DNA of 64,000 nucleotides, taken from positions 31,874 to 95,873 of the forward strand of contig CAMDHZ010000011.1 in NCBI GenBank assembly GCA_945898275.1, written 5' to 3'. Within the stretch, counting starts at the first letter, position 1. Every line of letters starts with the position of its first letter. Shown here piece by piece: positions 4,494-36,767 of this stretch. The stretch comes from Chitinophaga pinensis (GTDB taxonomy: Bacteria > Bacteroidota > Bacteroidia > UKL13-3). Made by a program: the position numbers and the translations under genes. The notes below the pieces were generated by a model. The model was not told where the DNA came from. It worked only from the letters and a program-made list of their open reading frames with translations, and ran no database searches.

Positions 4494-4514
4494 TATCATT
4501 CATTACGACTTTAA

Positions 4515-12309: not shown

Positions 12310-12329
12310 ATTTATTGGATTAAACAAAA

Positions 12330-12366
12330 AAAGCCGCCTCAAGCTTGCTTGAGGTGGCTTTTTCTA
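12330..12366 (+). terminator. rho-independent terminator after the adhesin gene
   Basis: AGCCGCCTCAAGC-ttg-CTTGAGGTGGCT hairpin followed by TTTTTC. Confidence 0.7.
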
Positions 12367-12459
12367 TTTAGCGAGTTATTCAGTTGAAAGACTTCCATCA
12401 TAGACTATTGGCGCATGAGATAAAATAATTACCTTCGCAGCACTAAGCACTAGTTTTAA

Positions 12460-13128: not shown

Positions 13129-13129
13129 T

Positions 13130-13294
13130 ATGAAATTTATAATAAATCAAGTTCAACAACATAGTAGCAGTATGCCAGATGCTTCTGGAACAGGAAAATT
13201 TTATGTAGTCATAGGGGTAATCGCCATTTTGTTTATTGGAATTGCAGCTTATTTAGTGAGCCTAGACTTTAAAATTAAAAAACTTGAAAAATGA
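13130..13294 (+). CDS. CcmD-like small membrane protein (54 aa, not in the ORF track)
   Basis: ATG at 13130 starts 2 nt after the ccmC stop. It encodes MKFIINQVQQHSSSMPDASGTGKFYVVIGVIAILFIGIAAYLVSLDFKIKKLEK with a single TM helix. Its stop overlaps the ccmE start (ATGA). Position and size match ccmD. Confidence 0.45.
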   Translation: MKFIINQVQQHSSSMPDASGTGKFYVVIGVIAILFIGIAAYLVSLDFKIKKLEK

Positions 13295-13674
13295 AAAAAT
13301 CTAGCATCATAGGATTAATCATTATAGCCATTGCCATTGCAGCAATTGTTAGCATGTACGGCGATTCTAGCACATACGAAGACTTTTCAGTCGCAAAAGA
13401 TAATCCAGGAAAGGAATATCATGTAGTTGGAACGCTTAATAAGACTAAAGAAAAGTACTACAACCCACAAAAAGATGCCAATTACTTTACTTTTTATTTA
13501 ATCGATCAAAAAGGTGCTGAATGTAAAGTGGTGTACCACAACCCAGAACCACCTGATTTTGATAGGTCTGAGCAAATTGTAATTGTAGGCAGCATGGAAG
13601 GACAAAATTTTGAAGCGAGCAAAATCTTGTTAAAATGTCCAAGCAAATACACAGATAATCAGGTTAAAACCTAA
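13291..13674 (+). CDS. ccmE: cytochrome c-type biogenesis heme chaperone CcmE, CxxxY variant
   Basis: N-terminal TM anchor and OB-fold-sized domain. The C-terminal KCPSKY has a CxxxY motif in place of the canonical HxxxY heme-binding motif. Confidence 0.75.
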   Translation: MKKSSIIGLIIIAIAIAAIVSMYGDSSTYEDFSVAKDNPGKEYHVVGTLNKTKEKYYNPQKDANYFTFYLIDQKGAECKVVYHNPEPPDFDRSEQIVIVGSMEGQNFEASKILLKCPSKYTDNQVKT

Positions 13675-13823
13675 ATAGTAAAGGTTTCGGTTTGAACCAA
13701 TCCTGATTACTTTCCAATTTTTACAAGAAATGACTTTTGTTTGACAGCTTAGCTGGTATTTTTACTTTATTTCCTTTTTGGTTACGGATTACATGTTCTA
13801 ATTTCGTAACCCAATTTTAATAC

Positions 13824-16211: not shown

Positions 16212-16219
16212 ACAATTTT

Positions 16220-18823
16220 ATGGATATACGTAGTAAGACATTTTTTAATTTGAAACTACGTTTACCATACGCTTTAATAGCCTTTACATTCTTTTTATTT
16301 TCTTTTGAAGCCATTGCCCAAGGAATAAAGGGATTTGTGGTGAACTCAAAAGGAGAGCCAATTCCGTATGTTAGTATTTACGCTCAACCCACTAAACGTG
16401 GCGCAAATTCAAATATTGATGGGAGTTTTTTGTTGAACCTATCCGCTGGCACTTATGAAATTAGTTTTAGTAGCATCGATTATAAACCTAAAGTTTTAAA
16501 AGTAGAGGTAACTGATAAATTGCTAGAATTAAAGGTTGTCCTTGAAGAGCAGAGCTACCAATTAAAAGAGGTTAAGGTTCAGGTGACTAATATAGACCCT
16601 GCTGTTTATATTATGAGGAAAGCCATTGGTGCCGCTCCTTATTATAGACGACAAGTTTTAAAATATGCTGCTAAGGTTTACATCAAAGGTTCTGGAAGTA
16701 TAGATTATGTACCAAAGCTTTTAAAAGGCATGGTTGAGGAATCTTCTGAAATGAAGGTAGGTAAAACATATGTAACCGAAAGCATCAATGAAGTTCAATT
16801 TTTTCAGCCCAATACCTATCGAGAAAAGGTGCTTTCTATGCAAAGCACTATGCCCTTTAAAGAGGGACCAGAACCCATGAGAATGGTTCGAGGAAACATT
16901 TATAATACAGATTATACAGGCGTTATTTCACCTCTTTCTTCTCAAGCTTTTTCGGTGTATAATTTTTTTCTAGAAGGTTCTTTTTATGAAAATGGAAGGG
17001 AAATAAATAAGATTAGGATTGAACCTAAACGAAAAGGTGCTGACATGTATTCTGGCTATCTCTATGTAATTGAAAAGCTTTGGTGTTTGCATAGCTGTGT
17101 GTTGAATAATTTATCAAATGGCGTGAACAGCTCTGTTAAAATTACCTTTAGTCAATTGGCCGAGCAGCCATTAGTTTGGCTGCCAACTACCTATGATTTA
17201 AGTTTCAAAGGAAATTTCTTGGGAATTAAAGGTGGATTTAGATACTTAGGGGCAGTAAGTAACTATAAGGTTACCCTCAATCCAAATCTTAGCCATGAAT
17301 GGTTGAAAGTTGCTTCCAAAGAAGCACTTGAATTAAAAATTGCCAGAGAAACAATTTCTGTTAAATCTAAAAATCAAGTAAAAATTGAAGCATTAGCTGC
17401 CAAAGAAAATCTCAATAAAAGAGAAATGCTGCAATTGGCTTCGCGTTTGAAAAGAGAATCAGAAAAAAGTTTAAATGCCAAGGTATTAGTGTATGATAGT
17501 ACTGAGTTAATAATAGATACCTTAGCATTTAACAAGGACAGCATCTTTTGGGTAGAAAATAGACCTGTACCTCTAATGGTTTCAGAACAAAGTAGTTTTT
17601 TGCAAAAAGATTCCTTATTAAAAACTATTCAAGATTCTTTTCCAAAACCTAAAATAAACAATACTAAATTTAATGTTTTTACTTACCTATTGAATGGAGA
17701 CAGCATCAATTTTAAGTCAAAACATTATTTGTGTTTAAGCAGTCCATTAATAGGTTTAAGGTTAAACTCAGTTAATGGAATTTTTGTAAATACCTATTTT
17801 AGTGTTGGCACAAGTAAAATTCCTCGAGCATGGCGCTATGTGCAAACTTTCCATGTTCCATTGCAACGAAACTTGGTTCAAACCAAAGCAGAATTTCATT
17901 GGCTATTTAAGCCTTATAAACTTGGCCAATTAAACTTATCCGCAGGTATTGTTTTGCAAGATTATAACAAAAATGGAATTACTCCTTTAGAAGATATTTT
18001 TCAATTGATTGTTTTAGGAAACAACTATTCTAAATGGTACATGAATGAATTTGTTGAAGGGTCTATAAATTATGAGGTGTCCAATGGTTTGAACTTAAAA
18101 ATGCATCTAGGCTATTTTCATAGATATGGTTTAGAAAATCAAACTTATTTCAAGGATAAAGAAAGTGCAAAGCCATATCAACCTAACCGCTTACCTGCAA
18201 ATGAAACCTTAGCCAACCATGAAAGTTATCAATTCGGAATAGGATTAGCATACAGGCCATATCAGCTGTATAGGTTCAAACAGAACAAAAAAGAATACCT
18301 AAAAAGCAAGTGGCCCTTGATTCAAGTAAAATACCAAATTGGGGCCGACAAAATATTACAGTTTCAACAGTTGGATTTTCAATTGAGTCAGCTTTTTAGT
18401 CCGCGCCATTGGGTAGAAATCCAATATAAAATGCAAGCAGGGTATTTTTTATCGAATAGGGGTTTATTTCGGCCCGACAAACAATATTTTGCTGGCAATT
18501 TATCGACAATCACGCAAGGGAATTATAAGGAACGGTTTCAAGATTTGCCTTATTATTTGCAAGCATCATCCCAGCAATATATTTCCTTTCACAGTAATTA
18601 TGCCTTTAAGCGCTTGCTTATAAAGCGATTGCCTTATCTTAACCTTAGCAATTTTAAGGAAGCTATTTACTTTAATGCACTTCAGTCAGATAAGCAAACT
18701 TTGTTTTATGAGGTAGGCTATCGAATTACAGAGGTGTTTAGGTTTTTTAGTTTTGGTTTGAACCAAACATTTTATGAAGGAAAGCCCAAGAGTTTAACAC
18801 TTAGGGCAAACATCAATTTCTAA
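16220..18823 (+). CDS. large outer-membrane-associated protein with N-terminal carboxypeptidase-regulatory-like domain (DUF5686-like)
   Basis: Signal peptide; GIKGFVVNSKGEPIPYVSIY...GSFLL...GTYEISFSSIDYKP is a CarbopepD_reg-like beta-sandwich. The large beta-rich remainder is typical of a conserved Bacteroidota family. Confidence 0.5.
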   Translation: MDIRSKTFFNLKLRLPYALIAFTFFLFSFEAIAQGIKGFVVNSKGEPIPYVSIYAQPTKRGANSNIDGSFLLNLSAGTYEISFSSIDYKPKVLKVEVTDKLLELKVVLEEQSYQLKEVKVQVTNIDPAVYIMRKAIGAAPYYRRQVLKYAAKVYIKGSGSIDYVPKLLKGMVEESSEMKVGKTYVTESINEVQFFQPNTYREKVLSMQSTMPFKEGPEPMRMVRGNIYNTDYTGVISPLSSQAFSVYNFFLEGSFYENGREINKIRIEPKRKGADMYSGYLYVIEKLWCLHSCVLNNLSNGVNSSVKITFSQLAEQPLVWLPTTYDLSFKGNFLGIKGGFRYLGAVSNYKVTLNPNLSHEWLKVASKEALELKIARETISVKSKNQVKIEALAAKENLNKREMLQLASRLKRESEKSLNAKVLVYDSTELIIDTLAFNKDSIFWVENRPVPLMVSEQSSFLQKDSLLKTIQDSFPKPKINNTKFNVFTYLLNGDSINFKSKHYLCLSSPLIGLRLNSVNGIFVNTYFSVGTSKIPRAWRYVQTFHVPLQRNLVQTKAEFHWLFKPYKLGQLNLSAGIVLQDYNKNGITPLEDIFQLIVLGNNYSKWYMNEFVEGSINYEVSNGLNLKMHLGYFHRYGLENQTYFKDKESAKPYQPNRLPANETLANHESYQFGIGLAYRPYQLYRFKQNKKEYLKSKWPLIQVKYQIGADKILQFQQLDFQLSQLFSPRHWVEIQYKMQAGYFLSNRGLFRPDKQYFAGNLSTITQGNYKERFQDLPYYLQASSQQYISFHSNYAFKRLLIKRLPYLNLSNFKEAIYFNALQSDKQTLFYEVGYRITEVFRFFSFGLNQTFYEGKPKSLTLRANINF

Positions 18824-19660
18824 TTAATTCGGCAAACTGTTTTTGAATTCTTGGTAACGTTGCGTGAATAATTCGTCATCTCCGCCACTTCCAAGACATT
18901 TCCAAGTAGCTTCAATATTTTCAACTCGGTTATCAGGATTAGGATGGGTGCTAATAAATTCGGGAGGAGAACTTTCACCACCAATTTTTTGGAAAAAGAA
19001 TTTTGCGCCTTGTGGGTCATATTCTGTTCCGTACAAATACCTAACACTATAATCATCGGCTTCTGTTTCATCTGTTCTGCTGAATTTAAGCGATAGAAGC
19101 TGGGCTCCAAGTTGAGCTAATTGGTTAGGGTCACCATTACTTAAAATTTCTAATAACAATTGAACACCAGTTTGCTTTAACATTTGATTTGCGCTATGTC
19201 TTCTGTCTGCATGCGCAATTTCATGGCCCATAACACCTGCAAATTGGGTTTCATTATCTAGAAACTTAATTAAGCCTGTGTACACATAAATATAACCGCC
19301 AGGCGTGCAAAATGCATTTAGTGTTTTATCGTCTTTAATGATTCTAATTCTCCAAGGAAACTCATCTTTGTAATAAACCTTTCCTGAATTTAAGATGTTA
19401 TTTCTAATTCTATAAATGTGTCCATAGGCCACAGAATTGGTGGCAGAATCTAAAATTGGGAAATTAGTTGGATCACTTTCAATTTGATTGACAGCCGTAA
19501 GTCCGAGTTGTTTATCCTGGTTGATACTCATAAGAATGCCAACTGCTCCTCCAGGAGCCTTACCACCACAAGGGTCTTCAAAGGATGCATCTTTATCGCT
19601 TTTGCAAGCAGATAGAATTAATAAAGATACTGTTATGCAAAAAAAGATGTATTTCTTCAT
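18824..19660 (-). CDS. M48-family zinc metallopeptidase lipoprotein
   Basis: Lipoprotein signal (LLILSAC) and HEIAHADRRH (HExxH) zinc motif. Its stop codon abuts the stop of the convergent 16220-18823 gene. Confidence 0.75.
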   Translation of the reverse strand: MKKYIFFCITVSLLILSACKSDKDASFEDPCGGKAPGGAVGILMSINQDKQLGLTAVNQIESDPTNFPILDSATNSVAYGHIYRIRNNILNSGKVYYKDEFPWRIRIIKDDKTLNAFCTPGGYIYVYTGLIKFLDNETQFAGVMGHEIAHADRRHSANQMLKQTGVQLLLEILSNGDPNQLAQLGAQLLSLKFSRTDETEADDYSVRYLYGTEYDPQGAKFFFQKIGGESSPPEFISTHPNPDNRVENIEATWKCLGSGGDDELFTQRYQEFKNSLPN

Positions 19661-19675
19661 GTTGGCAAATATCGA

Positions 19676-21160
19676 CTATTTTTTAAAGAAAACTTTAAAT
19701 GTACTGCCAACATTGATAATACTTTCTGCTTCTATATAACCGCCCATAGTTTCTATTTGTGTTTTGGTGAGAAAAAGTCCTATTCCTCTCGATTCCTTTT
19801 TCTTATGAAAAGTTTGATACATCCCAAAAAGCTTGTCTCCATATTTTTGTAAATCAATTCCAATTCCATTATCTGTAACAGACAAAATCACAAAATCTTT
19901 GTCCTCTTCAGCACTTATTTTTATATAAGAACTCCTTTCTGGAGCGCAATATTTAATTGCATTAGTGAGTAAGTTTAACACGATACTATCTAAAAAGGCG
20001 GGAACTGCTTTGATATTTTGGGATTCTAAAATGTTATTTTCAATAATTACTTCTGCTTTGTTAGCCAAACCAATAACGTTTTCTATTGCTTTTTTTATAA
20101 CTTCAAACAAAGCTAGATTTTCCAATTGGGCAGATATGTCTTCATTTTCATTGGTCATTTTAGACAAATTTCCAATTGTATCTAGCAAGTTTTTACTAGC
20201 AGTTTTTGTAAATGTAAGAAGTTCTTCCTTTTCCATGTTTTCATCAGAATCTAGCGCTAACTCCAGTAAACGTTGGATATTCCCAGCATGACTTCTTAAA
20301 TTGTGGTTAACAATATGAGAATAATTTTTGAACTTAATATTTTGTGATTTTAACAAGGATAAAATTCCAAATAACTCAGTTTCTGCATTTTTTCTTTTTG
20401 TAATATCTTGGTGAATGCCAAACATTAATAGTGGAAGATTTTCATTGGTTCTGGAAATCACCATACCTCTATCATAAATCCAAATCCAATTACCATTTTT
20501 ATGTTTCATTCTTACTTCCATCTCATAATATGGAGAAAGACCGTCAAAGCATTTTTGCAATTGTTTATTGGATTCCTCCAAATCTTTAGGATGTACAAAT
20601 TGTTCCCACGTTCTTATGCTAATAGGCGAAAGTTCTTGTAAGGTATACCCAATGATTTCAGCCCATTTTTCATTAAAAATGGTTTCACCTGTTTGCACAT
20701 TCCACTCCCAAGTTCCTAAGCCAGAACTTAAGATGATGTATTCATTCCTAAGTTTTTCTGACTGAAGGGCCAGTTCAATTTTTTTTCTTTTACCGATGTC
20801 TTGAAAAGTGCCAAACAACTTTTTGCACTTTCCATTTTCAAAAATGGTTTGTCCAATGGTTCGAACCCATTTCTCATTTCCTCTTTGAGTAATGATTTGA
20901 ACATCCAAGTCATATCCTTCTCCTAGTTCTATTGCTTTTTCAATGGCTTTAGAAATTGCATCCCTGCTTTCACCTTCTTTATAAAATAAAATGGCTGTTT
21001 CTAAATTAGGACCAAACGATTCATCTAATTCATGAATGGCTTTAGTAACTTTACTCCAAATAGGAACTTGAGTTGCAAAATCTAATTCCCAATAACCAAT
21101 GTTCGCAACTTCATTTGCTTTTTCTGCAAGCCACAAACTTTCTTCCGCTAAATGGTTCAT
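19676..21160 (-). CDS. cytoplasmic PAS-domain sensor histidine kinase
   Basis: Tandem PAS-like regions, H-box (VNHNLRSHAGNIQ) and HATPase_c G-boxes (DNGIGID..., GIGLFLTK...). No TM segments. Confidence 0.85.
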   Translation of the reverse strand: MNHLAEESLWLAEKANEVANIGYWELDFATQVPIWSKVTKAIHELDESFGPNLETAILFYKEGESRDAISKAIEKAIELGEGYDLDVQIITQRGNEKWVRTIGQTIFENGKCKKLFGTFQDIGKRKKIELALQSEKLRNEYIILSSGLGTWEWNVQTGETIFNEKWAEIIGYTLQELSPISIRTWEQFVHPKDLEESNKQLQKCFDGLSPYYEMEVRMKHKNGNWIWIYDRGMVISRTNENLPLLMFGIHQDITKRKNAETELFGILSLLKSQNIKFKNYSHIVNHNLRSHAGNIQRLLELALDSDENMEKEELLTFTKTASKNLLDTIGNLSKMTNENEDISAQLENLALFEVIKKAIENVIGLANKAEVIIENNILESQNIKAVPAFLDSIVLNLLTNAIKYCAPERSSYIKISAEEDKDFVILSVTDNGIGIDLQKYGDKLFGMYQTFHKKKESRGIGLFLTKTQIETMGGYIEAESIINVGSTFKVFFKK

Positions 21161-21283
21161 TTAAACAAAATTGATTTTTTAAAAAAATATGTTGCTTGAA
21201 CAAATTTTACTAATCAATTCTGTGTAAAGGTAGACTAGGGTTATTTTTCTTAAAATGATTTTGGTCAGTTGCTTATATGTTCT

Positions 21284-25161: not shown

Positions 25162-25227
25162 AATTAAGAGAAATAATAAAAATTGCGGGCAATTTCCCTG
25201 CTATTCTTTTTTATTTGCAGAATAATT

Positions 25228-26616
25228 ATGAAGCAAACAACTATTGCAAAAGCGGTGAGTTTAGAAGGTGTAGGCCTTCATACAGGTCAGAATGTGCATA
25301 TGACCTTTTTGCCAGCAGCCGATAATTACGGCATTAAGTTTCAAAGGGTTGACTTACCAGAGCAGCCTATTGTAGATGCAGATGTAGACAATGTGGTAGA
25401 CACCAGCAGAGGCACTACAATTGAGCAAAATGGTGCAAGAATTGCTACAGTAGAGCATGTTATGGCTGCTTTAGCAGGTTTGGAAATAGACAATTGTCTG
25501 GTTCAAATTGATGGTGGAGAAACCCCAATTATGGATGGTAGCTCTAAGTTTTTTATGAAAGCCTTACGTGAGGCAGGTATTACCGAATTAGAAGCAGAGC
25601 GTGAATATTTCTCCATTCCACAAAATGTATATTACACCGAAGATGATAGAAATGTAGAAATGATTGCCATGCCCTTAGACGACTATCGTTTAACTGTAAT
25701 GGTAGATTATAATTCTCCTGTCTTAGGAAGCCAACATGCTTCAATTACCAGTTTAAAGGAATTTGAAAAAGACATCTCAAGTTGCAGAACCTTTTGCTTT
25801 TTGCATGAACTTGAATTACTCTACAATAATGGATTAATCAGAGGTGGAGATTTAAACAATGCAATAGTAATTGTAGACAGGGTAATTGAAGACAATGAAT
25901 TAGACCATTTGGCTAAAATGTTTAATAAGCCTAAGGTTGAAGTAAAAAAGGAAGGCATCTTAAATAATGTTGACTTGCGTTTTCATAATGAACCTGCGCG
26001 ACACAAGCTGTTAGATTTAATTGGAGATTTGGCCTTGATTGGCACACCAATCAAAGCACAAATTATGGCTGCAAGGCCAGGACATGCTGCCAACGTAGCC
26101 TTTGGAAAGAAAATCAAAGCCTTAATCAAAAAAACACGAAATTCACATAAGGTTCCAAAAAACGACCCAAACAAAGCCCCTCTTTATAATTCTCAAGATA
26201 TTGAGAAATTATTACCTCACAGATTTCCTTTTTTATTGGTTGATAAGGTTGTAGAAATGGGCCAAAATCACATTGTGGCAGTTAAAAATGTAACCATAAA
26301 TGAACAATTCTTTCAAGGACATTTCCCCGGAAACCCTGTAATGCCTGGAGTTTTAATCATAGAGGCTATGGCACAAAGCGGTGGAGTCCTTATTTTATCT
26401 AAAGTAGAAGACCCAGAAAACTATAACACCTATTTCATGAAAATTGATAATGCAAAGTTCAAAGAAAAAGTTATTCCTGGGGATACCTTGGTGTTTCGAC
26501 TTGATTTAACTGCTCCAATCCGTAGAGGAATTTGTGTAATGAAAGGCAGTGCTTTTGTAGGCGATAAACTCGTTGCAGAAGCCGAATTAATGGCTTCCGT
26601 AGCAAAAAGTAAATAA
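25228..26616 (+). CDS. lpxC/fabZ: bifunctional UDP-3-O-acyl-GlcNAc deacetylase / 3-hydroxyacyl-ACP dehydratase
   Basis: N-terminal LpxC (MKQTTIAKAVSLEGVGLHTGQ...) fused to C-terminal FabZ hotdog (LLPHRFPFLLVDKV...FFQGHFPGNPVMPGVL). This fusion is typical of Bacteroidota. Confidence 0.9.
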   Translation: MKQTTIAKAVSLEGVGLHTGQNVHMTFLPAADNYGIKFQRVDLPEQPIVDADVDNVVDTSRGTTIEQNGARIATVEHVMAALAGLEIDNCLVQIDGGETPIMDGSSKFFMKALREAGITELEAEREYFSIPQNVYYTEDDRNVEMIAMPLDDYRLTVMVDYNSPVLGSQHASITSLKEFEKDISSCRTFCFLHELELLYNNGLIRGGDLNNAIVIVDRVIEDNELDHLAKMFNKPKVEVKKEGILNNVDLRFHNEPARHKLLDLIGDLALIGTPIKAQIMAARPGHAANVAFGKKIKALIKKTRNSHKVPKNDPNKAPLYNSQDIEKLLPHRFPFLLVDKVVEMGQNHIVAVKNVTINEQFFQGHFPGNPVMPGVLIIEAMAQSGGVLILSKVEDPENYNTYFMKIDNAKFKEKVIPGDTLVFRLDLTAPIRRGICVMKGSAFVGDKLVAEAELMASVAKSK

Positions 26617-27403: not shown

Positions 27404-28024
27404 TTGGAAGTAATTCTTTCTGATATTGGAAAGCGTTTCAATTCGCAGTGGATATTTAAAGGAATTACGCACACTTTCTTGCCAAATAGCATAAGCGCGC
27501 TAACGGGCAATAACGGTAGTGGTAAATCAACTTTGCTTCAAATTATTTATGGTTTTCAAACCTACAGCCGAGGTAAAATCTCATGGGAACTCAATAATGA
27601 AAGCCTAATCGATGAAACCCTACCTGGAAAAATTTCACTTGCAGCCCCTTATTTAGAATTGCCTGAAGAGTTTACTTTAGAAGAAATGCTTAGATTTCAC
27701 TTTAGCATCGTTCCTCCTAAGACAGCTAATTCAAAAGAAGAAATGCTAAAATCTGCTGGTTTAGCTGGGCAAGAGCAAAAATTCATAAAACATTTTTCTT
27801 CAGGAATGAAACAAAGGTTAAAGCTATTATTAGCATTTTACAGCAATTCTCCTTTGTTATTGCTCGACGAACCTTGCTCGAACCTAGATGAAAATGGTAT
27901 AAATTGGTATAGAAACATACTTGAAGCAAATATTGGCCAACGAACAATTATCATTGCTAGTAATCAAACGTTTGAATACCAGGGCTGTCAATCCATCATA
28001 AATGTATCTCAATTTAGGCCTTAA
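27404..28024 (+). CDS. ccmA: small ABC-type ATPase, probable heme exporter CcmA
   Basis: Walker A GNNGSGKST, signature FSSGMKQR and Walker B LLLLDEP. At 206 aa it aligns colinearly with E. coli CcmA (AGLAG.E ... LS.G...R ... ILDEP...D.NG). No adjacent permease. TTG start. Confidence 0.5.
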   Translation: MEVILSDIGKRFNSQWIFKGITHTFLPNSISALTGNNGSGKSTLLQIIYGFQTYSRGKISWELNNESLIDETLPGKISLAAPYLELPEEFTLEEMLRFHFSIVPPKTANSKEEMLKSAGLAGQEQKFIKHFSSGMKQRLKLLLAFYSNSPLLLLDEPCSNLDENGINWYRNILEANIGQRTIIIASNQTFEYQGCQSIINVSQFRP

Positions 28025-29123
28025 TCAGTTTTTGAATTTCCTGAGCGCCTTTTAAACCCGCATTTTCATCTCCAAAAAGTGCGCTTAATTCTGCATAATC
28101 ACCACGCATTTTTTCTAGTTTAGAACCTCCCGGCAAAATTTGTATCAACTCTTCAAGTAAATGCGCTTTGGTGTAATCTTTTTGAACCAACTCATTTATT
28201 GCCAATCTATCCAAGTTTAAATTTACCAATGAAACATATTTAACTTTTACAACCCTAATGGCAATATTATAGGAAATTGGATGCGCTGCATAGCCACAAA
28301 CTTGCGGCACACCCATAATCGCGGTTTCTAAGGAGGCTGTACCACTGCAAACTACTGCTGCTGTTGCATGTTTAAGAATTTGAGCTGTTTCTCCAAACAC
28401 AATATTTACGGTTGGGTTTAGCCATTCTTCATAAAATGATTTTTCTAAACCTGGTGCGCCTGCAATTAAAAATTGATATTCTGGTAAGTCATTGGCCAAA
28501 CTTAGCATAGGTGGCAACATTCTTTTTACTTCTTGCTTTCTGCTTCCAGGCAACAAAGCTATGATTGGCTTGTATTTATCTGCCCCAATTTCTTCTAAAA
28601 ACCCAGGACGAGGAAAAGTTTGTTTGGCTTGTTGAACCAATGGATTTCCTACATAAACCGAGTTTACTTTCCATTTCTTAAAATAGTTTGGTTCAAATGG
28701 AAAAATGAGCAAAAGTAAGTCTACATATTTTTCAATTTTATAACCTCTTTTTTCATTCCAAGCCCAGATTTTAGGGGCAATATAATAACAGGTTTTGATG
28801 CCATTTTCTTTGCCAAACTTAGCCATTCTAAGGTTAAAACCAGGGTAATCAACAAGTATAAGCACATCTGGATTAAATGCTAAAACATGAGATTGGCACC
28901 GTTTTAAATTTCCAAAAACTTCTCTAATTCGCATCAATACTTCCACAAACCCCATAATGGTAATGTCTTTGTAATGTTGCAATAAACCTGGTGCTATTTT
29001 TTGCATGGCATCGCCACCCCAATATTGAAATTCTGCTTTGGGGTCTTCAACCAAAATTCCTTGCATTAAACTTGCTGCCAAGGCATCACCACTGGCTTCT
29101 CCAGCTATTAAAAAATATTTCAT
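28014..29123 (-). CDS. lpxB: lipid-A-disaccharide synthase
   Basis: MKYFLIAGEASGDALAASLMQ... is a canonical LpxB (GT19). Its ATG overlaps the stop of the upstream 396-aa gene (ATGA). Confidence 0.9.
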   Translation of the reverse strand: MKYFLIAGEASGDALAASLMQGILVEDPKAEFQYWGGDAMQKIAPGLLQHYKDITIMGFVEVLMRIREVFGNLKRCQSHVLAFNPDVLILVDYPGFNLRMAKFGKENGIKTCYYIAPKIWAWNEKRGYKIEKYVDLLLLIFPFEPNYFKKWKVNSVYVGNPLVQQAKQTFPRPGFLEEIGADKYKPIIALLPGSRKQEVKRMLPPMLSLANDLPEYQFLIAGAPGLEKSFYEEWLNPTVNIVFGETAQILKHATAAVVCSGTASLETAIMGVPQVCGYAAHPISYNIAIRVVKVKYVSLVNLNLDRLAINELVQKDYTKAHLLEELIQILPGGSKLEKMRGDYAELSALFGDENAGLKGAQEIQKLIKA

Positions 29124-30310
29124 TGTTCAAAAAATGAGACTGTACTTCCTACCCAATTCAAGTCTTTGTTAAAATTAACACCAATCATTTTTCCCCTACT
29201 TAAACGTGTTAGCGAAATGGCTAATGTTGGTTTTTCGTCTTCATCTGGCCATAGATACATCATCCTAACTTCACATTTTACACCGCCTTCAGGTGTGTCT
29301 ATGGCTTCAGTATAAGTTACTTTTTTCTGAAGTATCCAATTTTCTGGGTCTTTGATAGACTTGATATCACTTTCTTTTACGTCTATGATGACACCTGCCC
29401 CAGCAAAGCTGAAAAGCGGTTTTAAGACATAGTTTTCTAAATCTTCTGGGATTTCTTTCACATGGTTTAGAAACTGCGTTTCTGGTACAAAGGCATGTTT
29501 TAAAAATGGCATGCTGTATTTACTAATTTGGTAAAACCAATTAGGATGTGAAACCCATTCAACTTCTAAATCATCAAACAAATTTACACGGTAAGTAAAA
29601 TGGGAATTGTTTTGTAAGTCGTCAAAAATTACGCGGTTATAAATTCGTTTTACTTCAACGGTTTTTCCGTTTTTGTAGTAAAACAGTTTTTTTTCTGTTT
29701 GAACCAATTCGCTTAAGCACACTACTTCGATGCCCAAAAGTGCTTGAGTTAGGTGAAAATCTACTCGCGTTTTTTGTTTATGTGGTTCTATTTCTAACAA
29801 GATAACTTCGGATGGATTATGTTCTCCTAAAATAGTTCTACGCAATAATTCTATATAAGAGGTTTGGTTCAAACCGCCCAATAAATGTGTGTATTGAGAA
29901 GTAATGGAGAATTCTTTTTGATATGCATTGCCTAAATAATTCATCCAACCAAACAAGCTGGCAAAGCCTTGCAGTTCTATGAGTTGTGGCTCTAATTCAT
30001 TGTTTAAGTCTCGGCAAATTGCAAAATCTATGCATATAAAATTGCTATGAGAGGAGACGTTTTTTACATTCAAACCTTCTGGTACCGCTTTTTTACTAGC
30101 TTCTAAGAATTCAGCAGTTTGAAGCGTACTAATTATTTCTTGACAAGCGCTTTCTAGTTTTAGTTGTAGTTGTTTTGGAATAAATACCGGACTTTCGGCC
30201 ACTCTAAAATCTATGGAATGCTGGCAATCTTCTTGCAAGCCTTGCAAGAAATTTTCATATTGCTTTCTATCAAAATTAGCATTGATATTATTCCTAAGTG
30301 CTGCTATCAT
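29120..30310 (-). CDS. hypothetical protein, possibly ATP-grasp-like ligase (396 aa)
   Basis: No firm motif. Weak ATP-grasp-like elements (KPLFSFAGAGV, E.RMMYL, MIGVNFNKD). Translationally coupled at both ends (ATGA overlaps) within the GCS2-GATase-X-lpxB operon. Confidence 0.3.
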   Translation of the reverse strand: MIAALRNNINANFDRKQYENFLQGLQEDCQHSIDFRVAESPVFIPKQLQLKLESACQEIISTLQTAEFLEASKKAVPEGLNVKNVSSHSNFICIDFAICRDLNNELEPQLIELQGFASLFGWMNYLGNAYQKEFSITSQYTHLLGGLNQTSYIELLRRTILGEHNPSEVILLEIEPHKQKTRVDFHLTQALLGIEVVCLSELVQTEKKLFYYKNGKTVEVKRIYNRVIFDDLQNNSHFTYRVNLFDDLEVEWVSHPNWFYQISKYSMPFLKHAFVPETQFLNHVKEIPEDLENYVLKPLFSFAGAGVIIDVKESDIKSIKDPENWILQKKVTYTEAIDTPEGGVKCEVRMMYLWPDEDEKPTLAISLTRLSRGKMIGVNFNKDLNWVGSTVSFFEQ

Positions 30311-31128
30311 TTCTTACTCACAATAGGTTGATTTATTTTATCATGGGCATTCCTTAGGAAAACTGGTAACATCAATTGCTGTGTCAATGCTATTTTTTTA
30401 GGGTCTTCCAAACTTTCAACCATATCATTATATTTCTTTAGACCATAGTTTTGTATGACTAACTCTTTTTTCTCTTTTTCTCCTAAATAATGCAACATGC
30501 CTTTGGCATCAGCTTCAGGATGAAATTGTGTACCAAAAATCTCTGGTGTAAATTCAATAGCCATAGTAGCCCTTTCAAAACTTACGTGTGGCCTTTGTTT
30601 TTCAATGGCTAAAATTTTTGCACCTATTTCATCAAGCGCTATTAAATTAGGTTGAATAACTTGCCATTTTCTTGAATCAACAGCGTAAAATGGGTCGGGT
30701 AGGGCAGCTATGATAGCATTTTGCTTTCCTTGTTTTGTGGGATGTATTGGGAAAATCCCAAAGGACTCACTTTGCCTTTTGTTTACCACAGCCAAATTAA
30801 AATGAAAGCACATCAGTTGAAAGCTATGGCAAATTAAGAACAGCCATTTTTTATTTGGTTCAACTAGATTATAAGCTATAATATCTTCCACTAAGCTTTT
30901 CCATGAAGCTTCCCAACCTTCTGCATCTATTGGGCTTCCTGGTCCTCCGCTACTTATGTATATATCAAAGGCTAAGTTAGGAATTTCATTTGCTCCTCTT
31001 ATATCAAATACTTGTTTGTTTACTGTAACGTTATGTGTTAGGGCAAAGGAATCAACCAATTGATGAATATTACGCATCCCTTGGTTAGGCTCCCCTTTGT
31101 ACATGTCTAAGATAGCAACTGATAACAT
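30307..31128 (-). CDS. class I glutamine amidotransferase-like protein (peptidase C26 / PuuD-like)
   Basis: Nucleophile-elbow ICHSFQ and catalytic FGTQFHPE motifs. Confidence 0.7.
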   Translation of the reverse strand: MLSVAILDMYKGEPNQGMRNIHQLVDSFALTHNVTVNKQVFDIRGANEIPNLAFDIYISSGGPGSPIDAEGWEASWKSLVEDIIAYNLVEPNKKWLFLICHSFQLMCFHFNLAVVNKRQSESFGIFPIHPTKQGKQNAIIAALPDPFYAVDSRKWQVIQPNLIALDEIGAKILAIEKQRPHVSFERATMAIEFTPEIFGTQFHPEADAKGMLHYLGEKEKKELVIQNYGLKKYNDMVESLEDPKKIALTQQLMLPVFLRNAHDKINQPIVSKK

Positions 31129-31131
31129 AAT

Positions 31132-32238
31132 TTATATGCCTTGCAAGGTAGTATTGGTAATATAATCTACCAATTCTATCCAGTTTTTATTTTGGTAATA
31201 AACCTTAAGTTGCCTGTCTGCTCCTGTGCCTTGCTCCATCATTCTATGCACATAATTGATATCATCTCTTGAACCCAAATCATCTACCACATCGTCTATA
31301 AAATCAAGTAATTCGAGTATAAGTTCTTTTGTTGGAACTTCGGCTTGCTTGCCAAAATCTATCATTACGCCATCTAATCCATACCTCGAAGCACGCCATT
31401 TGTTCTCTGCAATGAGCGCACGTCTGTAATGAATGAACTCCAAATTTTGTTGCTTAAGCTTGCAAAGTTTGGCACATAAAGCCTGAAAAACTGCTGCAAT
31501 GGCGAGAGTTTCGTCTAGAAGCATCGGGATATCACAAATCCTAAACTCTACAGTGTCAAAAACAGGATGAACCCTTAAATCCCACCAAATTTTCTTAGCA
31601 TTATCTATGCAACCTGTCTTAACCAAAAGCTTTACATAATTGTCATATTCTTCCCAACTTTCAAAGTAATCTGGAATTCCTGTTCTTGGGAATTTATCAA
31701 AAACCTTTGTTCTAAAACTTTTGAAGCCAGTATCTCTGCCTTCCCAAAAGGGAGAGTTAGCCGATAATGCATAAACATGTGGTAAAAAATAGCGCATAGA
31801 ATTAGCAATGTGAATGGCCAATTGTTTATTGGGCATACCCACATGTACATGTAGCCCAAAGATTAAATTGGAACGTGCAGCTTCCTGCATTTCATTTACA
31901 ATTTGGTGGTACCTTGGATTATCCGTAATAAGCTGTGTACTCCAATGACTAAAGGGATGCGTGCCGCTAGCACCAATTGTAAAACCCAAATCATTGGCCA
32001 CAGTATGGATGGTTTTTCTTAGGTTACCTAAATCTTTTCTGGCTTCTGTGGTATTTGCACATATTCCTGTTCCTGCTTCTACAACTGCCTGATGCATCTC
32101 TGCCTTTACTTGGTCGCCTGGTAATATCTTTTCGGCAGCAGTAACTATTTTTTGGTCGTGCGGCGCCAAAGCCCTGGTCTCTGGATTGATAACCATGTAT
32201 TCTTCTTCAATCCCTATGGTAAATTGTTTTAGATCCAT
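31132..32238 (-). CDS. carboxylate-amine ligase, glutamate-cysteine ligase family 2 (YbdK-like)
   Basis: FTIGIEEEYMVINPETRAL... N-terminus and overall GCS2 pattern. Confidence 0.8.
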   Translation of the reverse strand: MDLKQFTIGIEEEYMVINPETRALAPHDQKIVTAAEKILPGDQVKAEMHQAVVEAGTGICANTTEARKDLGNLRKTIHTVANDLGFTIGASGTHPFSHWSTQLITDNPRYHQIVNEMQEAARSNLIFGLHVHVGMPNKQLAIHIANSMRYFLPHVYALSANSPFWEGRDTGFKSFRTKVFDKFPRTGIPDYFESWEEYDNYVKLLVKTGCIDNAKKIWWDLRVHPVFDTVEFRICDIPMLLDETLAIAAVFQALCAKLCKLKQQNLEFIHYRRALIAENKWRASRYGLDGVMIDFGKQAEVPTKELILELLDFIDDVVDDLGSRDDINYVHRMMEQGTGADRQLKVYYQNKNWIELVDYITNTTLQGI

Positions 32239-32268
32239 TGTATTAGGATTTGGAGGTTAAGTTGACTT

Positions 32269-35200
32269 TTAATTTGTAATTTGAATTTTAGAATAGCCAT
32301 TACCACTTGGAATAACTTCTACATGTGTGGCAATCCGTTCTTTAAGTTCTGATAAATGGGAAATTACGCCAATTATTTTACCTTCACTTTGCAAATTAGA
32401 CAAGGCAGAAAGCGCTACATCTAAATAATCCGAGTCTAAGGTTCCAAAACCTTCATCAATAAATAGGGTGTCTATACGCATGTTTTTGCTCGCCATGTTA
32501 GATAGTCCCAATGCCAAGGATAGAGAAACAATAAACTTCTCTCCACCCGAAAGATTCTGGGCAGTACGCTCTTCATTGTTTTGAAATTTATCTACCACAG
32601 ATAATTCAAAGGGATTACTAATTTCTCCTGTTCTTTTGAGTAAGTATCTTTCCGACATTTTTTGCAACTGTTTGTTGGCCAAAGCTATCAAATGTTCAAA
32701 CGTTAAGGCTTGAGCAAAATTGCGATATTTTCTGCCATCACTTGCGCCAATGAGCCTATCTAAATTACTCCATTTATTGCAGGTTTCTTGTTGTTTTACT
32801 TTCTCTTTAAATTTAATTCCTCTTTCCTTTAAAGCCAATGCATTTGCATTTATAGCTTGTTGGTTCGCACCTATTTTTTGCAAAATAAAATCTGAATTTT
32901 GTTTCTTTTCTTTAAGTGTTATTTCAATTTCTTCAATGGCTTTCTCACTTAGTTTTTGAGATTGCTTTGCTATAAGTTCCTTTTCCTTTTCTTTAAAAAT
33001 TGCCTCAATTTTGGTTAACTCTATACTAGCAGTTTGATTTGATTTGTCTGCTTCATCCCTAACAAATTCAGCTTCTTGCAATTGATTTTTAAGCATGCTT
33101 TCTTCTTTATCCACCTGTTTTTCTCCAAATATTTCAAGACGTGCTAGGGTTAAATCTGACTTTTCAATTTCAATCTCTCCTCTTTCTTTTTCTTTCTCTT
33201 TAAGTTGTGATAGGCCATTATTAAAATTATTTTCAAAAATAGTTAGTTGATTGTTTAACGCTTGTTTATCTTTAGTTAATTCTTCAATACTTTTTTGATT
33301 GAATGTCCAATCCTCAAGGCATTTTTTGAGGGATTCGATGGTATCAACCTCATAATATTTTAGCCCATTTAAAAAGGAATTTGCTGCTTGGTTATGCTTT
33401 TCTTGTAGCGTTTTGGCTAATTCATTTTTACTGACAATATCTTGTTCAATTAAACTCAACTGCAACTTTATATCCATCATTCCTTGCTCAGCTTTTTGCC
33501 TTTCTTTTATTAAGATAGGTAGTTGTTGATCGCGTAAGTCAGTTATTTCTTTTTCAATTTCTGTGGCTTTATCAAGGTTGCTTTTTATGTTTTTGAAGTC
33601 GTTTTGTTTGCTAGTTAAAAGAGTTTGAAGAACCTCAATTTTATTTGACGCTTCAGGATAAACAAAACCATGATTTAAGGCTACTAAGGCTTTCTTCTGT
33701 TTTAAAAGATTTTCAATTAACTCCTGCAATTGCTTTTCGGCTTTGGCTTTTAAGGCTATGTTGTTATTTCGGTTTGAACCTACTTCGGCAAGTTTAATTT
33801 CTTGAGTGGATTTAACTTTTGTTTTTTGGTCGAGTTCCGATTTTAGATTAAACAATGCTTGTTCTTGATTTCCGATTGAAGGAATATTTCCTATAGCATA
33901 TGGGTGTTCAATTGCTCCGCAAAGCGGACAGGCCTCACCATCTTTTAGGTGTTGCCTATGTTCTGCCAAACTTAATATGGTTCTATTTAAAAGTATATTT
34001 TCTTCTAAGAGTTTAATTTGTAAATTTAGGTTGGTTATGCTTGTGTTTTCAATTTCAATCTGTCCTTCAAGCAAGTAAGTTTCCTTGTCAAACAAAAGCA
34101 AATTTTGGTCATATTCTGCTGTTTCACCCTGGCTTTTAAGGATTGCCATTTCTGTTTCTATTAAGCCTTTGAGTTCCGTTCCAAAGTTTGTTATTTTCTC
34201 CTTTTCTGATTGTAATTCAGAAAGTTCCTTTCCTGCTAAAACGTTTAGTAATTCTTGTTTTCTTTCCTCAAGCTCCTTGTTCTTTAGGGTTAACCTTTGG
34301 TCACTTGTATGATACGACTCATTCGCTAACGTTGCTTCAACTTTCTTTTGGTTTAAAGTTTGGTTCAACCCAACAATTTCATTGTTTATTTTTGTTAGTG
34401 ATTGGTTTTCCAATTGCAGGGAAAGATGTTCTTTTTCAATTGCAGCAAATTGTGAAAGGAGTGTTTCATATTTTAAATGATTTGCTTTCCAATCCTCTTT
34501 CTCTATAAGTTTTTTATTGGTTAACAGCAGTTGTTCTTTATACTTTTCAATTTTATGTTGAAGGCTTTTATTTTCAATTCCCAAGGATGCAAGCGTGTCC
34601 AAAATTGGTTTTAGTAAATTTTGTCTAATAGCTATTTTAGTATCTAGTTCTCTTACTTGCTTAAAAATTGGTTCATGCTTGCTTAATGTTTCTTTCGATA
34701 TCAACACACTTTTTTCAGCTTGTTCTATCTTACTTTTTGTTCTTTTTGCAATTTCTTCTAGTGCTGGTAAGTTTTGTTTTGCATCTTGAATTTGCTTTTG
34801 TAAAATGCTTAAGTCTAACAGCCATTTTCTTACAGATTCTAAGTTTTGCAACTCTTTCTCTAAATACTTTTTCTCCTTTTCTAATAAACTAATTTCGTTT
34901 TCTAATGTATTAGTTTCTTCATCAGAAAGCACTTTAATTGCTTCTACGGCAAGTAAAATTTTTTCAAGTTTTTCTTTTTCAATTCTGTTGCGTTCAAACA
35001 CTTTCTTAGAAATTTCTCCATAAATTTCTGTTCCAGTTATTTGCTCTAATAACTCACCTTTATCGTTTTTGTCTGCTTGTAGAAAGGCTGCAAAACTTCC
35101 TTGGGCAAGCATAATTACTTTGGTAAATTGCTCAAAACTAAGTCCAATAATTTCAATAATTTTAGTATCACAAGCACGAACTTGGTCGGCAATAATTATT

Positions 35201-35550
35201 CCATCAGCATCTGAAATAATGCGGTTAACTGGTTTTAAGTTTCCAGTTTTTGTTCTCTCTTGCTTCCAAGCGCTTTTCCATATTTTACCTTCAACCTCAA
35301 AGTTGATTTCTGCATAACAATCCTTCTCACCTCTTGTCATTACTGCATTTTCATTGCCCGAAATTTCTACTCTTGGAGTTTTGCCATAAAATGCCAATGC
35401 AATAGCATCTAGTATAGAACTCTTGCCAGCGCCTGTTTTACCAGTAATGGCAAACAAGCCATCATTGGTAAACACGGAATTTGTAAAATCAATTTCATTT
35501 TCTCCTGCAAGGGAATTAATGTTTTTAAATTTAAGTTTTAAAATTCTCAT
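32269..35550 (-). CDS. sbcC: DNA double-strand break repair ATPase SbcC (Rad50-like)
   Basis: N-terminal Walker A (ITGKTGAGKSSILDAI), long coiled coil, zinc hook CPLCG, and C-terminal signature/Walker B (LSGGEKFIVSLSLAL...LFIDEGFGTLD). Confidence 0.9.
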   Translation of the reverse strand: MRILKLKFKNINSLAGENEIDFTNSVFTNDGLFAITGKTGAGKSSILDAIALAFYGKTPRVEISGNENAVMTRGEKDCYAEINFEVEGKIWKSAWKQERTKTGNLKPVNRIISDADGIIIADQVRACDTKIIEIIGLSFEQFTKVIMLAQGSFAAFLQADKNDKGELLEQITGTEIYGEISKKVFERNRIEKEKLEKILLAVEAIKVLSDEETNTLENEISLLEKEKKYLEKELQNLESVRKWLLDLSILQKQIQDAKQNLPALEEIAKRTKSKIEQAEKSVLISKETLSKHEPIFKQVRELDTKIAIRQNLLKPILDTLASLGIENKSLQHKIEKYKEQLLLTNKKLIEKEDWKANHLKYETLLSQFAAIEKEHLSLQLENQSLTKINNEIVGLNQTLNQKKVEATLANESYHTSDQRLTLKNKELEERKQELLNVLAGKELSELQSEKEKITNFGTELKGLIETEMAILKSQGETAEYDQNLLLFDKETYLLEGQIEIENTSITNLNLQIKLLEENILLNRTILSLAEHRQHLKDGEACPLCGAIEHPYAIGNIPSIGNQEQALFNLKSELDQKTKVKSTQEIKLAEVGSNRNNNIALKAKAEKQLQELIENLLKQKKALVALNHGFVYPEASNKIEVLQTLLTSKQNDFKNIKSNLDKATEIEKEITDLRDQQLPILIKERQKAEQGMMDIKLQLSLIEQDIVSKNELAKTLQEKHNQAANSFLNGLKYYEVDTIESLKKCLEDWTFNQKSIEELTKDKQALNNQLTIFENNFNNGLSQLKEKEKERGEIEIEKSDLTLARLEIFGEKQVDKEESMLKNQLQEAEFVRDEADKSNQTASIELTKIEAIFKEKEKELIAKQSQKLSEKAIEEIEITLKEKKQNSDFILQKIGANQQAINANALALKERGIKFKEKVKQQETCNKWSNLDRLIGASDGRKYRNFAQALTFEHLIALANKQLQKMSERYLLKRTGEISNPFELSVVDKFQNNEERTAQNLSGGEKFIVSLSLALGLSNMASKNMRIDTLFIDEGFGTLDSDYLDVALSALSNLQSEGKIIGVISHLSELKERIATHVEVIPSGNGYSKIQITN

Positions 35551-36767
35551 TAATCAGCACCCCCCACATTTAAACTGTCTACAATTTCTCGGTAAGATTC
35601 TATCAAAGTAGTTTTCTGTTCTTCGTTAATGTTGGATTTTTCTAAAAGTTTATTAAATACTTCAGAAGTGTTAAGTTCTTCTAAGGAAAGGGTAGCGTCT
35701 TCTAATGATAAAACTTCATTCATAAATTGTCTGTTTTGAAGTTTTAATACTTCAATATTGCTGTCCTTTATATGTTCATTTACCCAGGTATGAAAATCTG
35801 GAAAAAGTTCATCGCCTTTGTAAATAATTTCTACCCAAACATTACTTTTATCTTGTTTCAATTTTTGAAGGCTTTCCAAAATATTAGCTTTGTTACCCGT
35901 AATTGATGCAAGTTTTTGAAAGACAGGGATCTCAATGGTTTCAATAGTTCTTCCATTATTAAAATCAATTATATAAACGCATTTGCTTTGTTTTGCCTCT
36001 CCAAAACCCATTGGAATAGGGGAACCGCAATACCTAATATGCTCCTTAATAGTTGAAGGAACATGGTAATGTCCTAGTGCGACATAATCAAAAGTGTCAG
36101 GAAAAATATCGCTACCAACAGCTTCTATATTGCCAATGTAAGTTTCGCGCACACCATCATCTTCGTTTCTTTTCCCACCAGCAACAGACAAATGTCCTGT
36201 AGCAATTATGGGTAGGTTTGAACCAATCTCTATCCGTTTTTGAAAAGCCAAGGCTGCTATCGCCTCGTAATGTTTTTTGATGTTTTCGTTGATGCGCTTA
36301 GACCTATCACTATAACTTTCTCCTTCTGCAAACCTACTAATATCCCTTTCTCTTAAAAATGGAACACCACAAACAATTGCAATTGGATTTTCTAGTTGTT
36401 CCTTTATCACAAGAATTTCATCTTCAATATTTTCTGTAGCATTGCCTATTACGCTAACGTTCAGCGCTGCAAGTATTGCTTTAGGAGCATTCAAAAAACT
36501 TGGAGAATCATGATTTCCGCCTACCACAACCACATTTTTACAGGCAGTATGTTTGATTTTTATCAAAAAGTCGTAATACATTTTTTGTGAAGTACTACTT
36601 GGAGATGCTGTGTCAAAAATATCTCCAGCTACCAATAATAAATCTATCTTTTGTGCTTGAATGGTATTGATAAGCCAACTCAAAAATGCTTTGTGTTCCT
36701 CTGTGCGCTCTTTTTTAGCATAGAGTGTTCTGCCTAGGTGCCAATCGGAGGTATGAAGTATTCTCAT
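35550..36767 (-). CDS. sbcD: exonuclease SbcD (Mre11-like)
   Basis: MRILHTSDWHLG... calcineurin-like phosphoesterase motifs (GDIFD, GNHD, GHYH). It overlaps sbcC by 1 nt. Confidence 0.9.
   Translation of the reverse strand: MRILHTSDWHLGRTLYAKKERTEEHKAFLSWLINTIQAQKIDLLLVAGDIFDTASPSSTSQKMYYDFLIKIKHTACKNVVVVGGNHDSPSFLNAPKAILAALNVSVIGNATENIEDEILVIKEQLENPIAIVCGVPFLRERDISRFAEGESYSDRSKRINENIKKHYEAIAALAFQKRIEIGSNLPIIATGHLSVAGGKRNEDDGVRETYIGNIEAVGSDIFPDTFDYVALGHYHVPSTIKEHIRYCGSPIPMGFGEAKQSKCVYIIDFNNGRTIETIEIPVFQKLASITGNKANILESLQKLKQDKSNVWVEIIYKGDELFPDFHTWVNEHIKDSNIEVLKLQNRQFMNEVLSLEDATLSLEELNTSEVFNKLLEKSNINEEQKTTLIESYREIVDSLNVGGAD

Follow-up and report, generated by a model that had tools for sequence, protein, structure and literature searches.

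Three adjacent minus-strand genes in a 64,000-nucleotide stretch of Chitinophaga pinensis DNA (assembly GCA_945898275.1, contig CAMDHZ010000011.1, forward-strand positions 31,874 to 95,873; hereafter the window, numbered from its first letter) appear to be the remaining half of a cluster that is conserved widely in aerobic Bacteroidota. They encode a YbdK-type carboxylate-amine ligase of the GCS2 family (31132-32238; 368 amino acids, aa), a stand-alone protein with the class I glutamine amidotransferase (GATase) fold and an intact Cys-His-Glu triad (30307-31128; 273 aa), and a 396-aa protein (29120-30310) that its predicted structure and a Foldseek search place among the ATP-grasp ligases. The gene that follows on the same strand, lpxB (28014-29123; 369 aa; lipid-A-disaccharide synthase), is a neighbour outside the conserved cluster. 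We propose that six genes form an amide-ligase cluster which was halved here by a recent deletion, that the ligases and the hydrolase of the cluster build and trim a small metabolite, and that the overlap with lpxB is incidental. We regard this reading as probable on balance, with considerable room for doubt.

The evidence for a larger unit comes from a genome scan of the neighbourhood of the 396-aa ligase gene at 80 Bacteroidota loci (L001-L080), which span Chitinophagaceae, Pedobacter, Mucilaginibacter, Chitinophaga, Dyadobacter, Spirosoma, Larkinella, a Cryomorphaceae metagenome-assembled genome, and others. Synteny of the trio in relatives, on which the original prediction for this DNA depended, was borne out by the survey, with the GCS2, GATase and ligase genes collinear in 28 of 71 loci. 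In 67 of the 78 assessable loci, the ligase gene is immediately preceded by a co-directional GATase gene, often at a distance of a few nucleotides, and this pair is the conserved core. Many Chitinophagaceae loci carry the pair with no GCS2 gene adjacent, and the neighbours outside the core vary, including a cupin (14 loci), Amidohydro_3 (9), a class III aminotransferase (6) and an M42 glutamyl aminopeptidase (5). Clustering of the flanking open reading frames (ORFs) revealed the larger unit: a divergently oriented esterase gene followed by a co-directional series encoding a second esterase, a RimK-like ATP-grasp protein, GCS2, the GATase and the ligase. This arrangement occurs in Sphingobacteriaceae, Cytophagales, Chitinophaga and the window's own relatives, and in about 25 of the 80 surveyed loci. 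Among additional related loci, the full cluster is present where the ligase is 95% (L086 and L088), 74% (L081), 67% (L083), and 59% and 58% (L084/85 and L092) identical to that of the window; in L091 (63%) the upstream end is cut and the cluster is visible from its third gene onwards. The esterases match PF00756 or general alpha/beta-hydrolase models, their best NCBIfam match being enterochelin esterase at a score far below the cut-off, and the 330-354-aa protein gives weak matches to the RimK and LysX models (E=1e-8). The original prediction had treated the three genes as a functional unit in their own right; that view gives way to a six-gene cluster from which three genes have been lost in this strain. 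A full-text literature search for the gene combination found no study and no experimental characterisation of the cluster.

How did the window come to carry only half of these genes? The sister strain L088 provides the answer. By blastn, L088 positions 1-4816 align with window positions 37094-32279 at 95.1% identity and L088 positions 8059-21191 align with window positions 32252-19118 at 93.8%, while the intervening 3,242 bp of L088 (4817-8058) are replaced by 26 unrelated bases in the window (32253-32278). The alignment resumes 14 nt before the GCS2 start, and the breakpoints fall within approximately 10 nt of the sbcC stop codon and the stop codon of the ATP-grasp gene. The segment present in L088 encodes an Unstab_antitox/ParE toxin-antitoxin pair, two esterases (one of them an alpha/beta-hydrolase) and the RimK-like ATP-grasp protein. 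In the window's own contig (L087), sbcC is followed directly by GCS2, and a tblastn search of all 64 kb of the window recovered none of the three missing genes. Because the six-gene order is widespread, we read the state of the window as derived, the result of a recent 3.2-kb deletion that left the trio as the distal half of the cluster.

The region holding the divergent esterase promoter was lost in the same event. In the present arrangement, transcripts of the trio and lpxB must originate from sbcDC or from internal promoters that escaped detection, with read-through probably coming from sbcD-sbcC (32269-36767, minus strand, identified from ORFs and Pfam matches), two overlapping genes co-directional with GCS2. 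The original prediction began its four-gene run with GCS2; the packing that it described is there, but GCS2 follows the end of sbcC, also on the minus strand, by a mere 30 nt, a spacing that the deletion itself would have produced. All three remaining genes are intact, full length and under purifying selection: the pairwise ratios of nonsynonymous to synonymous divergence (dN/dS) against L088 are 0.02 for GCS2, 0.13 for the GATase and 0.11 for the ligase, as low as those for sbcCD. The synonymous divergence itself rises toward the deletion from both sides, from 0.15 in lpxB through 0.23 in the ligase and 0.35 in the GATase to 0.49 in GCS2, and on the other side from 0.12 in sbcD to 0.16 in sbcC. 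Such a rise could be the mark of a recombination tract through which the deletion allele was imported.

The 396-aa protein is the least familiar member of the trio. It passes none of the curated models in Pfam (GSP_synth, GSH_synth_ATP and CP_ATPgrasp included) or NCBIfam: its best Pfam score is 12.4 bits against a cut-off of 29.3 for PF03738, the pre-ATP-grasp GSP_synth model (E=0.086), and its best NCBIfam score is 12.6 bits against a cut-off of 350 for NF040720, with a faint match to MptN (E=0.052). A phmmer search against the Protein Data Bank (PDB) returned no significant match, and a profile built from 30 homologues returned no PDB match at E values up to 10. Homologues are abundant, more than 8000 at E<=1e-3, which is a lower bound as 8000 candidates were scored. 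The best 120 are nearly all 394-400 aa long, unnamed or annotated as hypothetical, and devoid of precomputed Pfam domains, and a few UniRef entries carry the label "circularly permuted ATP-grasp superfamily protein". An exhaustive profile search yielded 1640 representatives at 50% clustering, indicating a compact family.

Structure prediction and fold search succeeded in placing this protein where sequence-only searches gave nothing significant. The AlphaFold2 model, built with 30 homologues, has a mean predicted local distance difference test score (pLDDT) of 89.7 and a predicted template modelling (TM) score of 0.90, and its 24 Foldseek matches in the PDB at E<=1e-3 all fall within one clade. 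The members of this clade include the putative glutathionylspermidine synthase 3n6x, yeast and human glutathione synthetase (GS), soybean homoglutathione synthetase, nematode GS-like effectors, E. coli GspS, YgiC and YjfC, the fungal E-64 ligase Cp1B, and trypanothione synthetase (TryS). The pre-ATP-grasp and ATP-grasp domains of the model are arranged as they are in GS, GspS and YgiC. At the sequence level, the stretch Y-V-L-K297-P-L-F-S-F-A-G-x-G-V is invariant or nearly so in the 30 homologues and lines up with the YgiC sequence YVVKPIFSREGANV, which carries the ATP-binding Lys and the Gly-loop. The stretch I111-E112-L-Q114-G-F is invariant in the same homologues and, in sequence, resembles the IEINT motif of human GS with Gln in place of Asn; it may correspond to the acidic/amide motif E-x-N that binds Mg2+ in human GS. 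Residues R222, N225, R226, Q328, K330, E347 and R349 are invariant as well, as are E112 and Q114 of the stretch above, and together these conserved residues fit a working active site.

Judged by the model, the 396-aa protein is thus clearly a divergent member of the GS/glutathionylspermidine (GSP)-synthetase clade of ATP-grasp enzymes and not a new fold. The suggestion that it is a third ligase gains support from this placement. The accompanying suggestion of a novel family holds in the sense that no Pfam or NCBIfam family covers the protein, but it is a family-level newcomer in a known ligase clade and not an enzyme of a novel kind. To our knowledge, all characterised members of the clade act on a small peptide or acid, linking its free carboxylate to a polyamine or an amino acid. 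Three cases illustrate this: spermidine is ligated to peptides by YgiC and YjfC, an amino acid is attached to epoxysuccinate by Cp1B, and homoglutathione synthetase couples beta-alanine to gamma-Glu-Cys (PMC12568646).

Among the long homologues of the ligase we found no fusion to a GATase; the apparent cases are a transporter fusion or merged gene call and proteins with signal-peptide and Ala-rich extensions. The former, P0128 (870 aa), combines a sodium:solute symporter (PF00474) with a full-length ligase domain and is either a real fusion or the product of merged gene calls. The latter are the high-GC homologues P0154, P0161, P0191 and P0196, which carry a signal-peptide-like N-terminus and an Ala-rich extension of approximately 150-190 aa, an odd feature for an ATP-dependent enzyme. 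The genomic contexts of such distant high-GC homologues come from short contigs. In L093, where the homologue lies at 545-2221, the next gene encodes a PGM1-like ATP-grasp peptide ligase.

The assignment of the first gene of the trio is straightforward. The 368-aa protein matches PF04107 with 219 bits (cut-off 21), NCBIfam PRK13515/NF010039 with 525 bits (cut-off 371) and TIGR02050 with 308.6 bits (cut-off 176.4), and it aligns with the E. coli YbdK structure 1r8g at E=7e-54, confirming its earlier identification as a YbdK-type GCS2 carboxylate-amine ligase. GCS2 is far better conserved than the genes around it: against L081, its protein identity is 94%, compared with 74-75% for the GATase and ligase and 61% for sbcC, and against L001 and L002 it is 77-79% where the ligase is at 56-58%.

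The GATase-fold protein matches the general GATase family (PF00117, 34.5 bits, cut-off 22.8) and contains the motifs ICHSFQ and FGTQFHPE, and its residues C100, Q104, H203 and E205 are invariant across 30 homologues. It had been described as a C26/PuuD-like GATase1, and while the GATase1 assignment and the quoted motifs stand, Pfam Peptidase_C26 (PF07722) gives no match at E values up to 1, so that "PuuD-like" is best taken as an analogy and not as membership. The AlphaFold2 model (pLDDT 92.9) contains a predicted C-terminal helical extension of roughly 65 residues, and Foldseek returned 106 PDB matches at E<=1e-3, of the GATase1 fold throughout among the matches listed. The top stand-alone matches are SMU.1228c, GGP1, DnfC, TM1158 and MetA acyltransferases, and true glutaminase subunits rank after such stand-alone proteins, with PabA, TrpG and GuaA-N among the neighbours. 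The closest characterised structural neighbour is the Arabidopsis gamma-glutamyl peptidase GGP1 (Foldseek E of approximately 1e-12, TM score 0.65-0.74), which uses C100, H192 and E194 for catalysis and Q104 to bind the gamma-glutamyl moiety, is placed in MEROPS family C26 by its authors, and according to them has an S1 subsite common to class I GATases and C26 peptidases (PMC12958103). Since the Q104 subsite is common to both groups, the GATase of the window almost certainly attacks a gamma-glutamyl amide, which on the structural model could be either glutamine, with the enzyme serving as an ammonia donor, or a gamma-Glu-X compound, with the enzyme serving as a peptidase.

What might these enzymes do together? 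The mechanism that we propose is inferred from the chemistry of the families involved. GCS2 and the 396-aa enzyme would each activate a carboxylate with ATP as an acyl-phosphate and then join it to an amine. Most likely, GCS2 forms a gamma-glutamyl amide, and the 396-aa enzyme adds an amino acid or polyamine to a small peptide or acid at its free carboxylate, as do YgiC, GspS and glutathione synthetase. The GATase-fold protein would most likely hydrolyse the gamma-glutamyl amide bond of the same metabolite, in trimming or in turnover, and assembly would be stepwise and independent of nonribosomal peptide synthetases. The synthetase/amidase pairing seen in glutathionylspermidine synthetase, in PuuA/PuuD and with GGP1 offers a parallel. 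By analogy with these systems, we consider it the likeliest role of the cluster to build a small gamma-glutamyl or peptidyl-amine metabolite in ATP-dependent steps and to trim it with a cysteine hydrolase. The original suggestion of a gamma-glutamyl ligase paired with a gamma-glutamyl hydrolase remains viable because the closest characterised neighbour of the GATase model is GGP1.

Several points weigh against this proposal. The substrates and products proposed for the six proteins are predictions, and the sequence and fold of the GATase fit an ammonia donor as well as a hydrolase. GCS2 and the GATase-ligase pair may act on different molecules, since many Chitinophagaceae have the pair with no GCS2 beside it. 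The search for the three lost genes covered the 64-kb window, and they could be present in another part of the genome. Scans for sigma-70-type promoters, TAnnTTTG elements, terminators and synonymous-site conservation located neither a promoter nor a terminator reliably. Finally, the lpxB overlap is kept across saturated synonymous divergence in the window's clade, as expected from descent, although selection could conceivably have contributed.

Comparison with known systems shows where the cluster is conventional and where it differs. The 396-aa ligase shares the fold clade of eukaryotic-type glutathione and homoglutathione synthetases and of fungal Cp1B, which are among the closest known systems, but it is only 10-14% identical to E. 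coli YgiC/YjfC, GspS and trypanothione synthetase-amidase, and its GSP_synth score is below threshold. Moreover, the partner hydrolase in the GspS and trypanothione systems is a CHAP domain, whereas here it has the GATase1 fold and is a separate polypeptide. The GATase model shares with GGP1 the Cys-His-Glu triad and, four residues beyond the Cys, the Gln that binds gamma-Glu in GGP1, but identity is only 14-15%. As in puuA/puuD, the gene for a glutamine-synthetase-superfamily ligase stands beside that for a GATase-fold hydrolase; unlike in PuuA/PuuD, the ligase is GCS2 and not of the GlnA type, and the GATase has its tighter linkage with the ATP-grasp ligase and its looser one with GCS2. Membership of the 368-aa protein in the YbdK family is clear; we know of no physiological substrate assigned to YbdK, and the context of E. 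coli ybdK presumably differs from the combination of a GATase, two ATP-grasp ligases and esterases found here. Iyer, Abhiman, Burroughs and Aravind are reported to have predicted in 2009 non-ribosomal amidoligase operons in which ATP-grasp and GCS2/GS-like ligases, amidotransferases and hydrolases make peptide-derived metabolites, and the cluster fits this general kind.

The value of the cluster lies in its metabolite pathway and not in a new principle, and the cluster itself is conventional-looking. Once found, its product would enlarge the known biochemistry of soil and freshwater Bacteroidota, possibly by a gamma-glutamyl peptide or peptidyl-amine, and the cluster would give a YbdK-type GCS2 enzyme its first physiological context. 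The strain-level deletion shows that the proximal and distal halves are separable and provides a natural comparison for metabolomics. A bolder version, that three mutually unrelated amide ligases, a Cys hydrolase specific for gamma-glutamyl groups and the two esterases of the six-gene cluster make an undiscovered small peptide or peptidyl-polyamine, possibly glutathione- or glutathionylspermidine-like and widespread in aerobic Bacteroidota, is speculative and in our judgement unlikely to hold; if it did, the 396-aa protein would found a new ATP-grasp ligase family, and the deletion strain would be a ready-made natural half-pathway mutant.

The main rival to a ligase-and-hydrolase pathway is a glutamine-dependent amidoligase, in which the GATase acts as a glutaminase and channels ammonia to the 396-aa ATP-grasp enzyme (or to GCS2) for conversion of a carboxylate to a carboxamide. 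CarA/CarB, MurT/GatD and AsnO in the synthesis of the dipeptide amide N-acetylglutaminylglutamine amide (NAGGN) are precedents, and a GATase gene directly upstream of the ligase gene, as in the 67 of 78 loci, is the usual arrangement of glutaminase and synthase subunits. This adjacency is compatible with ammonia transfer to a partner synthase but not specific for it. The triad and the Gln-binding Q104 are intact, true glutaminase subunits (PabA, TrpG and GuaA-N) and DnfC are among the structural neighbours, and the predicted helical extension at the C-terminus could serve as a docking surface. Against these points, we know of no characterised ATP-grasp enzyme of the GS/GSP-synthetase clade that takes ammonia as its nucleophile. 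YgiC/YjfC, Cp1B and homoglutathione synthetase instead use amino acids or polyamines (PMC12568646). We found no GATase-ligase fusions in the top 120 homologues of the GATase or in the top 150 representatives of the ligase, and the closest stand-alone structural relatives of known function include the hydrolase GGP1. We consider the amidoligase a serious contender, albeit an unlikely one.

A second rival turns the same enzymes into a glutathione- or glutathionylspermidine-like pathway for a low-molecular-weight thiol. Here GCS2 would make gamma-Glu-Cys, the RimK-like protein, the 396-aa ligase or both would add residues or a polyamine, the GATase would be a GGP1-like gamma-glutamyl peptidase, and the PF00756 esterases would be S-acyl thioesterases. 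The nearest characterised relatives do come from glutathione chemistry (GS, homoglutathione synthetase, GspS, TryS and YgiC for the ligase, GGP1 for the GATase), Lehmann et al. reportedly found in 2004 that YbdK has weak gamma-Glu-Cys ligase activity, S-formylglutathione hydrolases belong to PF00756, and GCS2 is exceptionally constrained (dN/dS 0.02). But the likeness is at the level of the fold, at 10-15% identity; GshB, eukaryotic-GS and S-formylglutathione-hydrolase models all stay below threshold; the best NCBIfam match of the esterases, as described above, is enterochelin esterase, well under its cut-off; and a natural strain survives without half of the cluster. The thiol reading is further weakened by published surveys that assign bacillithiol derivatives to Bacteroidetes (PMC6282198). 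We rate a thiol pathway as distinctly improbable.

Could the trio simply be a functionless remnant that is decaying in this strain after loss of its partner genes and promoter? The deletion took three of the six genes together with the divergent promoter region, and the missing genes are found nowhere in the window. Yet the three ORFs are intact and full length, and their dN/dS values against L088 (0.02-0.13) resemble those of sbcCD and do not support decay after the deletion. Furthermore, the GATase-ligase pair stands alone in many Chitinophagaceae, so the distal genes evidently work without the proximal ones nearby, and lpxB downstream still needs transcription through or near the trio. We think it very unlikely that the trio has lost its function.

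The remaining question is whether lpxB has anything to do with the cluster. Its identity is secure (PF02684, 271 bits; TIGR00215, 239.9 bits against a cut-off of 190), as the original prediction had it, and it overlaps the ligase stop codon by 4 nt in all of L081, L083, L086, L088 and L091, where ligase identity is 63-95%. In this clade, lpxB adjoins a convergent ABC-lpxA-lpxC/fabZ-lpxD block. In contrast, lpxB is absent next to the ligase in L084/85, L092, L001 and L002 (56-59%), which have unrelated genes instead, and neither lpxB, lpxA, lpxC/fabZ nor lpxD occurs within 6 kb of the ligase gene at any of the 80 surveyed loci. Because the linkage is limited to the clade at 63% identity and above, and because the whole neighbourhood is collinear there, we read it as inherited synteny in one compact-genome clade, with no sign in these comparisons of a link to lipid A. 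The significance that had been attached to overlap-coupled co-expression with a lipid A synthase accordingly falls away.

Co-transcription itself is plausible from the sequence. The expectation that no terminator separates the trio from lpxB agrees with our scan, which found no convincing terminator-like site on the minus strand of the ligase-lpxB interval and a total site count below the shuffled expectation. Inside the ligase gene we found no TTTG/TAnnTTTG match with the proper spacing for an lpxB promoter, and its 3' end shows no peak of synonymous-site conservation in the lpxB-linked relatives relative to controls. A cluster tied to lipid A or lipopolysaccharide synthesis, for instance through an amine or peptide substituent with the lpxB coupling as co-regulation, could draw on the clade-wide overlap beside lpxD-lpxC/fabZ-lpxA and on the missing terminator, but it is largely refuted by the synteny survey (0 of 80 loci, unrelated genes after the ligase in the next-closest relatives, collinearity that plain inheritance explains, and overlapping junctions that are common in this genome), and we give it hardly any credence.

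The junctions themselves are as originally described for the four minus-strand genes. The GCS2 stop codon TAA is separated from the GATase ATG by the 3-nt spacer att, the GATase and ligase genes share a 4-nt ATGA overlap within aaATGAta, and the ligase gene and lpxB share another within caATGAaa. Of the 36 same-strand neighbour pairs in the window, 11 lie no more than 3 nt apart and 24 no more than 30 nt apart, and coding density is approximately 92% or more. Because tight junctions are ordinary across such a window, the packing of the four genes is weak evidence for a functional link. At its other end, the 3' end of lpxB overlaps that of a convergent ABC-ATPase gene (27404-28024) by 11 nt (28014-28024), leaving no space for a terminator between the two converging transcription units.

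Several further observations concern the cluster and its surroundings. PADLOC models gave no match at E<=0.01 for any of the six cluster proteins, and a role in anti-phage defence was rejected on that basis. An Rfam scan of the window and five related loci detected only tRNA and Flavo-1 RNA and no riboswitch; the Flavo-1 small RNA (RF01705, 42.3 bits, barely above the gathering score) lies at 10462-10525 of L004, from Pedobacter sp. KACC 23697, approximately 3.3 kb downstream of the cluster. In L007, L018, L030 and L039, the position of the GATase is held by an unrelated protein of approximately 268 aa with a signal-peptide-like N-terminus (ORF cluster c24), and a gene that adjoins it was named short-chain dehydrogenase-like by sequence motifs alone. 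Elsewhere in the window, the ORF of the LpxC/FabZ fusion (25183-26616) begins mechanically at a TTG at 25183 and would encode 477 aa; the true start probably lies 45 nt downstream, since the gene calls in the window's contig and its relatives give 462 aa. Finally, we note that the plus strand carries a 2256-aa ORF at 5539-12309.

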